From the sequence record MZ311865.1: 64,000 nucleotides of DNA. One strand, 5' to 3'. The stretch comes from Escherichia phage vB_EcoM_LNA2. The position numbers and the translations under genes were made by a program. The notes under the pieces are model-generated. The model was not told the DNA's origin and searched no databases. It saw nothing but the letters and a program-made list of their open reading frames with translations. This document shows positions 15,073-18,656 of the stretch, one piece after another (the stretch's first letter is position 1; each line of letters starts with the position of its first letter).

Positions 15073-15441
15073 TTATGCAACTTTAATCCAATTGTCTAAA
15101 TTTAAAACACCTTTGGCTTTCATTTTTTCGATCAGGCTATCTGCTGTAATGCGTCCATTTTGATACCATGTAACATCTTCAGAGTAACCAGTTTCTTCGT
15201 CAACATATGTTTCTGAACGAATTTTACCGGTAATAATAGTTTTTAATTCGTATGTGTCACCTGTGAAAAAGTTTGCTAACACAATTTTCCAAGAGAAATC
15301 ATCTGAAGGACCTTCAGGGGTCATACAACCTACGAACTCAAATTGCTCTTTGTATAACATCCACCGGAATTCTTTAATTTCGATAGCTTTATAACCGCCG
15401 TGGTCTTTACATTTGATGTATGAGTTCAGATTGATTTTCAT
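15073..15441 (-). CDS. hypothetical protein (30.8-like position)
   Basis: 122-aa ORF. Confidence 0.45.
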   Translation of the reverse strand: MKINLNSYIKCKDHGGYKAIEIKEFRWMLYKEQFEFVGCMTPEGPSDDFSWKIVLANFFTGDTYELKTIITGKIRSETYVDEETGYSEDVTWYQNGRITADSLIEKMKAKGVLNLDNWIKVA

Positions 15442-15483: not shown

Positions 15484-15512
15484 ATAGTAACACATCCTAC
15501 AGGAGAGTAAAC
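15484..15512 (-). promoter_or_regulatory. early-type promoter cassette
   Basis: Minus-strand GTTTAC-17nt-TACTAT upstream of ORF 15073..15441. Confidence 0.45.
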
Positions 15513-15550
15513 ATCTTTTTTTAAACTTTTTCTGCCCTAAACGCACAAAA

Positions 15551-15568
15551 GGGAGACCGAAGTCTCCC
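15551..15568 (-). terminator. UUCG-tetraloop hairpin
   Basis: GGGAGAC-cgaa-GTCTCCC on plus strand, immediately 3' of the small basic ORF. Confidence 0.55.
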
Positions 15569-15573
15569 TAAAT

Positions 15574-15753
15574 TTATGCAACAACCTTTCCAAAACGAGA
15601 AGCATCATCTCGAAGAACTGCACGTGCTCTGCGCATGATCTTCTCAACTGTTTGATTAATACGAGAGTTCGACCCACGCTTGTATCCAGCGCGTTTAGAG
15701 GTACCATCAACTTTCTTTTCAACTGCTTTCTTTGCTTTAGCTTGTTTTGCCAT
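15574..15753 (-). CDS. small basic protein, 59 aa (missed by ORF track)
   Basis: Hand translation: MAKQAKAKKAVEKKVDGTSKRAGYKRGSNSRINQTVEKIMRRARAVLRDDASRFGKVVA; Lys/Arg-rich; stop followed by terminator hairpin. Confidence 0.5.
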   Translation of the reverse strand: MAKQAKAKKAVEKKVDGTSKRAGYKRGSNSRINQTVEKIMRRARAVLRDDASRFGKVVA

Positions 15754-16021
15754 TATAAATTCTCTTTAAATGAAAATGCAGGACTTATTGACATTGCCTG
15801 CGCAAGCCCTCAAGGGGAACATAGGTTTTGGGTATTTAACGACAGGATAACCATAAACCCGTCATCATACTTACCATGACTTACACAGCTAACCTTTTGC
15901 TGACGCATGATAGTACAAAATACATTCAAGAGGTACACCGTAAAATTGTCGGGGCGGTACTTCTAAAACATAGCGATTCGCAAATCGATAATCAGACAAT
16001 TCGACGGCTCCTCGATTTAGC

Positions 16022-16270: not shown

Positions 16271-16394
16271 TTTAAATTCTCAATTCGAGACAATATTTAG
16301 TAGCCACGTTCGTCTGAATTTCACCTTCTTTCGACAGGTCTCTCAGTTGTAGGCTACCGCTTAGAAGAGTGTTCTCTTCATATAGTTATTTATA

Positions 16395-17093: not shown

Positions 17094-17664
17094 AAAAGTT
17101 TCGGATTTGTTCCCAATTCAGAGAACGAAGATTATTACGAGAGTACTGAATTACTTCAATACCGGCTTGTTTTAGAATGTCTGCCCAATTTTCAGGAGAT
17201 CGATCGTATAATTCTGCGTATACAACCTTTTTAATACCTGACTGCGTAATAGCTTTAGTGCAATCAGGACATGGAGAAAGCGTCGTATATAACGTAGCGC
17301 CTTCAATAGAATTACCTTTACGAGCTGCAAACAAAATTGCATTCAATTCTGCATGGATTTCATTATTAGCAGACCATGCACTATGAGCGGCCCGATGTTC
17401 TTTAGCCAAAACAAAATTATCTGCCCGTCCAAATGCTGTAGTGCCTTCTTTATGTCCAGCAACGATGACCGGGCTTGGTTTATTCTTCAACCAACCATTT
17501 TCGGATGCATGTTCACAACAGTTAACGCCACCTGCTGGTGAGCCATTATATCCAGTAGAGATAATGCGCCCATCTTTTTCAATGACTGCGCCAACTTTCC
17601 ATGAACAACATTTTGATTCTTGAGAAATCAGATATGCAATCTGAAGGTATGTGCTAGCTTTCAT
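17083..17664 (-). CDS. cd: dCMP deaminase
   Basis: 193 aa; zinc-binding deaminase motifs HAELNAI and SPCPDC; T4 Cd length. Confidence 0.9.
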   Translation of the reverse strand: MKASTYLQIAYLISQESKCCSWKVGAVIEKDGRIISTGYNGSPAGGVNCCEHASENGWLKNKPSPVIVAGHKEGTTAFGRADNFVLAKEHRAAHSAWSANNEIHAELNAILFAARKGNSIEGATLYTTLSPCPDCTKAITQSGIKKVVYAELYDRSPENWADILKQAGIEVIQYSRNNLRSLNWEQIRNFCGE

Positions 17665-18656
17665 TATTGAACCTTATTAATATAAGTTAACAGCTCTTTA
17701 GTTTGTTCCCAACTGATGCACGCATCGGTAACGGAAACGCCATAGGACATATTATCAGAAATTTTTTGATTTCCTTCATGTAGGAATGATTCTATCATAA
17801 TTCCTTTGACCAAATCATTAGCTGCTAAATTTTTACCAATACCAATTTGATTGCTATAATGTCCATCAGCGTTTGCATGGCTACAGTCAACCATTACATA
17901 ATGATTCAGACCTACTGCCCTTGCTTTGTTAGAAGCTTCTTGAATATCAGAAGAATGATAGTTCGGGCCGTTGGTCCCGCCACGCAATACGATATGCGTA
18001 TTCTGATTACCTTCAGCTTCAACAATGCCTACAGTACCATCGACGTCCATACCCATATACCGATGAGGCCAGGCGGCACTATACATCGCGTCTGTAGCTA
18101 CTTTAATAGAACCATTGGTTGCGTTCTTGAAGCCTACGCACATCGGTAGACCTGAAGCAATTTCACGATGTGTCTGACTTTCAGTCGTACGGGCGCCAAT
18201 AGCAACCCATGAGAAAATACCAGAAAGATACTTAATCGTGAATGGGTCTAATACTTCAGTTGCTAATGGAAGTCCCATACGTAGAAGTTTACGACACAAT
18301 GTTCGTGCAACTATAAGACCGTGGTTCATATCAAAACTTCCGTCAAGATATGGATCATTTACAAGACCTTTCCAACCTACGGTAGTTCGAGGCTTTTCAA
18401 AATAAACGCGCATCACTAACAGAACATTAGGAAGACGAGTTTGAAGTTCAGCCAGACGTTTGCCGTATTCAACAGCAGCAATAGGGTCATGAATTGAACA
18501 AGGACCTACAACAATAAGTTTGCGTGGGTCTTCACCATTCATAATCGAATTAACTTGTTCGCGATGAGAAGCCACTTGTGATGCGTAAGCTTCCGACAAA
18601 GGAATAATCTCAGCTAGTTCTTTTGGAGAAATAAGTTTTCCGACGACAGGTAACAT
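17664..18656 (-). CDS. DAHP synthase (phospho-2-dehydro-3-deoxyheptonate aldolase), AroF/AroG-like
   Basis: 330 aa with class I DAHP synthase signatures (VVGPCSIHDP, RVYFEKPRTTVGWKGL, GARTTESQTHRE, VMVDCSHAN, GVSVTDACISWE); locally higher GC than flanks. Confidence 0.85.
   Translation of the reverse strand: MLPVVGKLISPKELAEIIPLSEAYASQVASHREQVNSIMNGEDPRKLIVVGPCSIHDPIAAVEYGKRLAELQTRLPNVLLVMRVYFEKPRTTVGWKGLVNDPYLDGSFDMNHGLIVARTLCRKLLRMGLPLATEVLDPFTIKYLSGIFSWVAIGARTTESQTHREIASGLPMCVGFKNATNGSIKVATDAMYSAAWPHRYMGMDVDGTVGIVEAEGNQNTHIVLRGGTNGPNYHSSDIQEASNKARAVGLNHYVMVDCSHANADGHYSNQIGIGKNLAANDLVKGIMIESFLHEGNQKISDNMSYGVSVTDACISWEQTKELLTYINKVQ

Follow-up and report, generated by a model that had tools for sequence, protein, structure and literature searches.

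Gene 30.9 of bacteriophage T4 (T4p212, NP_049823) lies between rIII and 30.8 and encodes a 58-aa product recorded as a 'conserved hypothetical protein'. Its entry in the T4 catalogue goes back decades, and RB69 and most other T4-type genomes also carry an annotation for it. The literature that we found on gp30.9 or its gene consists of annotation tables, besides a citation of a study of the in-vivo expression of rIII and 30.9 (Driukas and Nivinskas, 2003, Biologija; cited in PMC9409239). In a time-resolved omics study of T4, the 30.9 transcript was placed in the 'early' class and the protein was classed as NA, meaning that it was not detected by mass spectrometry (PMC9697503, Table S2). Such a miss is expected, because a K/R-rich protein of 58 aa yields mostly tryptic peptides that are too short. 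In a CRISPRi-ART screen, knock-down of T4 30.9 scored 0.04 for fitness (p 0.26, 'Not Fit'), compared with 4.1 for the neighbouring gene 31 (PMC11879866, supplement). The early class and the dispensability are both reported for T4 only.

Identity and coding status of the ORF

The window analysed here is a stretch of 64,000 nucleotides from Escherichia phage vB_EcoM_LNA2 (MZ311865.1), an RB69-like (Mosigvirus) T4-type phage. Over the 2.2 kb that surround the ORF of interest, the sequence is 96-98% identical to many Escherichia/Shigella T4-type phages, and Shigella phage Shf125875 is among the RB69-group relatives that match at this level. The following features define the ORF and its start:

15574..15753, minus strand: coding sequence assigned to gene 30.9, ATG to TAA, 59 codons, with the translation MAKQAKAKKAVEKKVDGTSKRAGYKRGSNSRINQTVEKIMRRARAVLRDDASRFGKVVA
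15760-15767, minus strand: Shine-Dalgarno-like AAAGAGAA, 6-8 nt before the ATG, as read from the sequence
15766-15768, minus strand: in-frame TAA, 12 nt (four codons) upstream of the ATG

This ORF is almost certainly the RB69-group orthologue of T4 gene 30.9. Its product is 100% identical to Shf125875 gp200 (YP_009100751, 'similar to RB69 gp30.9') and 95% identical over its whole length to T4 gp30.9; it also matches PHROG 1427 (unknown function) over residues 1-57 with an E-value of 2.4e-31, and a profile search recovered the T4 gp30.9 entry at E 5e-30. A first-pass annotation made from the letters of the window had described the ORF as an unannotated gene and proposed a homology search of its peptide. 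That search thus gave a clear answer, and the claim of an unannotated gene falls with it: as a gene call, the ORF is an already known gene, represented by PHROG 1427 and annotated in T4, in RB69 and in most genomes of the type. The gene had been missed in that annotation because the ORF track ended at 60 aa.

The window copy shares with T4 gp30.9 the rIII and 30.8 flanks, the MAK start and a terminator straight after the stop codon, and differs from it by an extra residue (D16) and by a C-terminal end of VVA instead of QKA. Around the identical protein of Shf125875, the flanking genes are 95-99% identical to those of the window. We saw no notable difference from RB69 gp30.9 (AAP76119), Shf125875 gp200 or PHROG 1427, all of which are labelled 'hypothetical protein' or 'unknown function'. 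The ORF has the similarity, locus position, size (~53-64 aa), MAK/MSK start and SKRAGYKRxSNxR motif that characterise the T4 gp30.9 family. Nothing that we found contradicts the assignment. Some GenBank and UniRef records among the homologues (our hits H26, H31, H56, H80 and P0017) carry the name 1,4-alpha-glucan branching enzyme (GH13), which we rejected as an annotation artefact for a protein of 59 aa with no Pfam domain.

Many ORFs of similar size occur in the AT-rich 64-kb window, and a length of 59 codons is by itself within chance; it is conservation that takes this ORF beyond chance. The homologous ORFs were taken from 28 related loci. Of the six frames, the annotated one alone is free of stops across all relatives examined. 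Mean pairwise differences at the first, second and third codon positions are 0.21, 0.17 and 0.36, so that the third position is the most variable, and dN/dS against the window copy is 0.13-0.5 (Nei-Gojobori), with 35-55% of synonymous sites changed. Indels are whole codons and are confined to the variable N-terminal tail. The MAK/MSK ATG is the only start common to all homologues, and upstream in-frame extensions are not conserved. With the in-frame TAA 12 nt ahead of the ATG, the window cannot encode a version of the protein with a longer N-terminus. This TAA also makes impossible here the 97-aa model of UniProt P17310 (T4, 'uncharacterized 11.1 kDa protein in Gp30-rIII intergenic region'), which we rejected for the in-frame stop and for the absence of a conserved upstream start. 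An overlapping 61-aa ORF with a TTG start (15537-15722) was likewise rejected, as its frame has stops in relatives. The gene is real, conserved, syntenic and under purifying selection. The clean, protein-coding minus-strand ORF of 59 aa described in the first-pass annotation is borne out by the dN/dS values, the codon-position pattern and the unique conserved open frame, and the loss of frame conservation in relatives that it had named as a refutation was not seen; the frame is kept.

Homologues of the ORF were found by tblastn in 984 records of the phage collection, from phages of Escherichia, Klebsiella, Shigella, Enterobacter, Yersinia, Salmonella, Serratia and Citrobacter. The window and 26 of the 28 loci share the gene order cd-31.1-31-rIII-30.9-30.8-30.7; the other two loci, which are the most distant and of which one belongs to a 235-kb genome, have no rIII, and 30.9 comes straight after gene 31 there. 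When 1.84 billion representative proteins were searched exhaustively with a profile, just 17 clusters came back. These are short (47-97 aa) and unannotated, apart from one repetitive match of 617 aa and two fragments of 20 residues. Those distant members whose source could be traced come again from T4-type genomes, of 160-235 kb. The most distant cluster members, including that of the 235-kb phage, keep just SKRAGYKRxSNxR(I/V)(N/D) and a basic helix after it, and the SKRAGYKRxSNxR motif is retained in them at 31-45% overall identity. A tblastn search of the phage collection with one distant member (P0074) gave no match.

Protein features and family searches

The product of 59 aa (6.56 kDa) has 18 K+R against 5 D+E, a pI of 11.35 and a net charge of +13. 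The strongly basic composition on which the first-pass annotation had remarked is therefore plain. Three parts can be distinguished in the protein:

Residues 1-19: Lys/Ala-rich tail, predicted to be disordered and variable between relatives
Residues 19-31: invariant SKRAGYKRxSNxR motif
Residues 30-54: long amphipathic helix, from the AF2 model

The AF2 model, built from an alignment of 30 sequences, places a disordered tail at residues 1-19 and helices at 20-26 and 30-54, with a moderate mean pLDDT of 67. The long helix has a hydrophobic moment of 0.59 compared with 0.26 +/- 0.13 in shuffles, and its hydrophobic stripe (I32, V36, I39, A43, V46/L47 and F54) is conserved. The core, SKRAGYKRGSN(S/K)RINQTVEKIMRRARAVLRDDASRFGK, is 90-100% identical across phages of Escherichia, Klebsiella, Yersinia and Serratia, genera between which gp31 and RIII are 55-80% identical. 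Against Klebsiella phage Marfa, for example, the 30.9 core is 91% identical compared with 62% for gp31 and 65% for rIII; the core is often more conserved than the neighbouring genes. This strong conservation fits oddly with the missing knock-down phenotype in T4.

Family and fold searches returned little. Pfam searches with the window protein and 13 diverse members gave sub-threshold noise, and NCBIfam gave noise alone for the gp30.9 orthologue. Ribosomal and nucleoid-associated families (HU, H-NS, Fis, bS21, bL35 and similar) did not appear at E <= 10 in Pfam, nor in NCBIfam. Foldseek with the AF2 model gave zero matches in the PDB and matches of E > 6 in BFVD; we regard this result as uninformative for a modelled single helix, which carries little fold information. 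The sole PDB sequence match, obtained with two profiles, was to one helix of SlmA (25 residues, 122-146), where a segment of gp30.9 aligns with RINQTVEKIMRRARAVLRDDASRFG at E 0.15-1.2 and ~44% identity, as counted by eye from the alignment. SlmA is a nucleoid occlusion factor of the TetR family, and both its HTH domain and the remainder of its fold are missing from gp30.9. We rejected homology to SlmA, as the E-value is not significant and the similarity covers one helix only, and keep the match as a lead and not as evidence; membership of the SlmA/TetR family was rejected too, as a protein of 59 aa is too short for the HTH or the helical C-terminal domain.

The role that the first-pass annotation had suggested, of a nucleic-acid-binding or a ribosome- or nucleoid-associated small protein, stays a reasonable guess from composition alone, neither supported nor excluded by these searches.

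Transcript boundaries and leader RNA

The sequences on either side of gene 30.9 contain the following candidate signals and structures:

15544..15569, minus strand: putative intrinsic terminator, stem (A)GGGAGAC/GUCUCCC(U) with a UUCG tetraloop, then UUUUGUG
15484..15512, minus strand: T4-early-type promoter of the gene 30.8 unit, GTTTAC at 15507-15512, 17-nt spacer, TACTAT at 15484-15489
15820..15863, minus strand: predicted H-type pseudoknot of 44 nt (module B), GACGGG-UU-UAUGGUU-AU-CCUGUC-G-UUAAAUACCCAA-AACCUAUG
15807-15817, minus strand: leader hairpin CCCC-UUGA-GGG (module C), by inspection
15797-15801 with 15778-15782, minus strand: leader hairpin GCAGG/CCUGC (module C) with the conserved loop CAAUGUCAAUAAGU, then a U-rich run, by inspection

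The UUCG hairpin that had been reported at the end of the ORF stands up well. It occupies 15551-15568, 5-7 nt past the stop codon (15574-15576), and its fold of -21.1 kcal/mol has a z-score of -5.05 against dinucleotide shuffles. A hairpin and T-run directly past the stop are found in all the fetched loci but L022, which holds the most divergent homologue (92 aa). The stems vary in sequence yet stay complementary, as in GGACUCC/GGAGUCC of T4 and GGGAACC/GGUUCCC, GGGGCUCC/GGAGCCCC and AAGCCCC/GGGGCUU elsewhere. With a GC-rich stem-loop, a U-run and a conserved position, the element has the hallmarks expected of a Rho-independent terminator, as far as can be judged from sequence. A generic terminator scan missed it because an extra A-U pair in the stem shortens the T-run that the scan counts.

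About 40 nt beyond the terminator, and preceded by an A-rich stretch, lies the GTTTAC promoter at 15484..15512, read from the sequence, which we take to be a T4 early promoter on the T4 early-promoter consensus. It was not listed by a generic sigma-70 scan. In most relatives, the pattern GTTTAC...TA(t/c)(a/t)(a/g)T is likewise found past the terminator. The early promoter of 30.8 appears to mark the downstream boundary of the 30.9 unit. Because the terminator is conserved and is followed by an early promoter, gene 30.9 would close a transcription unit in all members of the group, as the last cistron of a 31-rIII-30.9 unit. Neither scanning nor inspection gave a convincing sigma-70 or MotA promoter just upstream of 30.9.

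The intergenic region between rIII and 30.9 measures 268 nt in the window and 120-416 nt in relatives, and consists of short, conserved, GC-rich modules arranged as a mosaic: from one phage to another, a module may be there, missing or in a different order. The predicted pseudoknot is the best characterised of these. Over 15 distinct sequences, 82% of the cells of its pairs are standard, compared with 34-51% in slid controls; 7 of the 14 pairs show double compensatory changes, and the observed covariation score was reached by none of 500 shuffles. It is assigned to the sense RNA strand because of its G-U pairs. With a covariance model, the 64-kb window gave one match of 55.6 bits (E 2.6e-11), the next best scoring 9.8 bits. 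Of 24 related loci, 22 have a single copy, in each case in the rIII-30.9 interval, and the other two are those without rIII.

The two module C hairpins stand directly ahead of the 30.9 ribosome-binding site, and their stems vary between relatives with complementarity kept. The second stem takes the forms GAACUGG/CCAGUUC, GGGAGC/GCUCCC, GGGAAC/GUUCC and GGUGGAG/CUCCAC in relatives (by inspection). Nearer to the start codon, minimum-free-energy folding predicts a weak hairpin at 15759-15777 in which the Shine-Dalgarno AAAGAGAA pairs with an upstream AUUUUC (AUUUUC/GAGAAU); in relatives, for which 27 homologue upstream contexts were available, the predicted pairing is of GGAAGA with UCUCC instead. 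The folding energy of the leader as a whole is ordinary (z -0.43), and the evidence for structure is for this reason comparative and not thermodynamic. Neither the leader RNA modules nor the element at 16299-16358 and the ~135-nt module of relatives, both described below, matched Rfam at E <= 1. Resemblances of the pseudoknot to preQ1-I and guanidine-III were considered and dropped, as no Rfam score supported them.

The closest described counterpart of the pseudoknot is the autoregulatory pseudoknot of T4 gene 32 mRNA, likewise a small H-type structure in a 5' leader and conserved among relatives. The two differ in sequence, locus and loop composition, and the distance to the start codon is variable in the present case. 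This variable distance, together with the co-occurrence with rIII, argues against the pseudoknot as a simple operator of 30.9.

Modes of action of gp30.9 and neighbouring RNA elements

Gene 30.9 would be transcribed from upstream promoters and translated from its own conserved ATG, and its transcript would end at the intrinsic terminator. We propose that gp30.9 may be a non-essential accessory factor which uses its basic motif and its tail to dock on a polyanionic target that is itself conserved, with RNA (mRNA or ribosome) likelier than DNA. The hydrophobic face of the helix could then provide a second contact, either for self-association or for a protein partner. Arginine-rich-motif RNA-binding peptides such as the N-terminal motif of lambda N offer an analogy, being likewise very small, strongly basic and partly disordered, with a conserved K/R-rich motif beside a helix. 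The composition of gp30.9 and the structured RNA next to its gene are suggestive in this respect. Sequence similarity between such peptides and gp30.9 was not detected, and the likeness would be one of action and not of membership. We know of no antitermination role in T4, nor, to our knowledge, has an RNA target of gp30.9 been described. Against docking of this kind stands the lack of significant similarity to nucleic-acid-binding, ribosomal or nucleoid families in Pfam, NCBIfam, the PDB and fold searches. Joined to the orthology with gene 30.9, this tentative, polyanion-docking mode of action makes up our best overall explanation of the ORF, one that comes close to probable without quite reaching it.

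Peptides that bind acidic protein surfaces typically carry a high positive charge too, and gp30.9 might bind a conserved host protein instead of nucleic acid. Its amphipathic helix would dock on, or mimic, a helix in some host factor, for instance RNA polymerase, a chaperone or a protein of division or nucleoid occlusion, and the basic tail would lie on an acidic surface, by analogy with other very small phage modulators of host proteins. The conserved hydrophobic stripe of the helix speaks for such a partner, near-invariance across genera suggests that the partner is conserved, and the only PDB sequence match, at E 0.15-1.2, is a helix of SlmA. That similarity is, however, not significant and covers a single helix, a knock-down phenotype is absent on laboratory E. 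coli, and the charge and composition suit a polyanion at least equally; we consider a host-protein target rather unlikely, if still worth bearing in mind. A dispensable, very small protein with an early transcript, encoded among T4 early accessory genes without known function, would also suit a conditional counter-defence or antitoxin-like factor (cf. Dmd) needed only on certain hosts. Counter-defence genes are usually patchy and fast-evolving, but 30.9 keeps to one locus and occurs in almost all the enterobacterial T4-type phages sampled, with a core 90-100% identical across genera, and no annotated family matches it, which makes this role improbable.

Several T4 proteins regulate their own translation: gp32, RegA and gp43 repress the translation of their own mRNAs. 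With these precedents, and with a basic, putatively RNA-binding protein encoded just downstream of a covarying pseudoknot and conserved hairpins, gp30.9 could be imagined as the trans-acting partner of its own leader RNA (15820-15863 and the adjacent hairpins), repressing or timing its own translation. The distance from the pseudoknot to the start of 30.9 varies, however, from ~70 nt in the window to >300 nt in Marfa, and where 30.9 occurs without rIII, in two loci, there is no pseudoknot. Because of this absence and the variable distance, the pseudoknot appears to track rIII or the enterobacterial clade and not 30.9, and we think autoregulation of this kind very unlikely. The undetected protein in the T4 proteome time course (PMC9697503) might even be read as a sign that the ORF is untranslated and that what is conserved is some RNA or DNA element which happens to stay open. 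The third-position bias, dN/dS below 0.5, the conserved start and stop, the stops carried by the other frames in relatives and the whole-codon indels in the tail all speak against a noncoding element, and tryptic peptides of this protein are mostly below detectable length; the chance of such an element is close to nil.

Polyanion docking by gp30.9 thus remains our preferred reading. The protein is among the most conserved small T4-type proteins, with neither a detected tryptic peptide in the time course nor a laboratory phenotype, and such conservation implies a function under selection which the usual laboratory assays have missed. What is of continuing interest at this locus is the unexplained, extreme conservation of a dispensable mini-protein, along with structured leader RNAs that have no Rfam match. 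As candidates for new biology, the covarying RNA structures around rIII, which belong to no Rfam family, are better than the ORF.

Ribosomal protein S1 is a known partner of RIII. It is conceivable, as a distant prospect, that 30.9 and the structured RNAs around rIII form one RNA-protein unit that times the translation or stability of 31-rIII-30.9, perhaps with S1. The members of such a unit would be the leader structures at 15820-15863 and 15778-15817, an element at 16299-16358 and, in relatives, a module of ~135 nt. If it were true, the unit would represent a new form of phage cis/trans regulation on RNA motifs that are not in Rfam.

The last two of these RNAs were seen outside the leader of the window copy. 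The element at 16299-16358, in the spacer between gene 31 and rIII, is ~60 nt long and has three helices, all of which covary; it recurs between rIII and 30.9 in phages that include the Marfa-like ones. The ~135-nt module lies in the rIII-30.9 spacer of many relatives and is absent from the window and from T4. It is 90-100% identical in 407 phage records and folds into a multi-branch structure, in which 16 of the 44 pairs show compensatory changes.

Structured RNA between gene 31 and 30.9

We identified the following RNA and promoter features around rIII, one of them outside the window:

Window 15754-15817, minus strand: hairpins of the proximal 30.9 leader, seen by inspection
Window 15820-15863, minus strand: H-type pseudoknot, conserved among relatives, in the leader between rIII and 30.9
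Window 16299-16358, minus strand: three-helix RNA element of about 60 nt in the gene 31-rIII spacer
Window 16387-16394, minus strand: perfect T4 late-promoter motif, TATAAATA
L003 (Klebsiella phage Marfa) 859-993: GC-rich module of about 135 nt between rIII and 30.9

The pseudoknot (GACGGG-UU-UAUGGUU-AU-CCUGUC-G-UUAAAUACCCAA-AACCUAUG) shows covariation in both stems, with double changes in seven of the 14 pairs. We found 82% of pseudoknot cells to be paired, compared with 34-51% in slid controls, for which pairing was recomputed with shifted partners. The window contains one copy, as do 22 of the 24 related loci; among these 24, loci that lack rIII also lack the pseudoknot. By inspection, the proximal 30.9 leader contains a CCCC-UUGA-GGG hairpin, next a GCAGG/CCUGC stem whose loop (CAAUGUCAAUAAGU) is conserved and which is followed by a U-rich tail, and then a predicted weak hairpin in which an upstream anti-SD segment pairs with the Shine-Dalgarno region. 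This layout also appears, on inspection, to be retained in relatives, whose stems are different but complementary, and the leader of some relatives contains a 47-nt insert.

On the other side of rIII, the window holds one copy of the three-helix element (GGUAGCC-UACAAC-UGAGAG-ACCU-GUCGAAAGA-AGGU-GAAAU-UCAGA-CGAACGU-GGCUACU), and all three helices covary when the window, T4 and Marfa-type phages are compared. In some phages the element is found in the rIII-30.9 spacer rather than in the 31-rIII spacer, which indicates that it swaps sides of rIII.

The GC-rich module is absent from the window and was observed, besides Marfa, in the related loci L004, L005, L009, L010, L013, L017-L021, L027 and L028. 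It occurs once in each of 407 phage records, with 90-100% identity across genera, and is left unannotated in most of them. RNAalifold predicted a multi-branch fold in which 16 of 44 pairs are compensatory. Rfam searches returned no match for the pseudoknot or the three-helix element, and none at E ≤ 1 for the module. We regard the module as a candidate for a structured RNA of T4-type phages that has no name yet.

The late-promoter motif lies immediately 3′ of the gene 31 stop codon, upstream of rIII, and is followed by a GAAGAG-AACA-CUCUUC hairpin. As a sequence-based prediction, it fits the report that rIII has early, middle and late promoters (PMC9409239). Transcription starting at this predicted promoter would continue into 30.9.

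Names and weak similarity of the 30.9 protein

Several GenBank/UniRef entries (among them phage records H26, H31, H56 and H80, matched by tblastn, and the protein-database homologue P0017) give the 59-aa 30.9 protein (15574-15753) the name “1,4-alpha-glucan (glycogen) branching enzyme, GH-13-type”, which we rejected as a propagated annotation error; other records use “putative 11.1 kDa protein”, a label that stems from an obsolete 97-aa T4 model. Searching PDB sequences with two profiles yielded nothing besides one helix of the nucleoid occlusion factor SlmA (residues 122-146), which resembles residues 31-55 of the 30.9 protein without reaching significance (E 0.15 and 1.1). The Pfam TetR_C_12 match in one family member (E 0.014) is probably the same signal, and we treat this non-significant resemblance as a lead.

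Neighbouring genes

A 330-aa ORF (17664-18656, minus strand) adjoins the dCMP deaminase gene (cd) and reads, from its sequence, as a DAHP synthase; its counterpart in Shigella phage Shf125875 is annotated as phospho-2-dehydro-3-deoxyheptonate aldolase (AroG superfamily). This DAHP-synthase-like ORF is an auxiliary metabolic gene, and T4 is not known to have a DAHP synthase gene beside cd.

Downstream of 30.9, gene 30.8 (15073-15441, minus strand) is mosaic. It shares 95% identity with Shf125875, 74% with Klebsiella phage Marfa and only 37% with T4 gp30.8, while the flanking 30.7 and 30.9 remain 91-96% identical to T4, which suggests a cassette swap with the terminator/early-promoter junction as its boundary.
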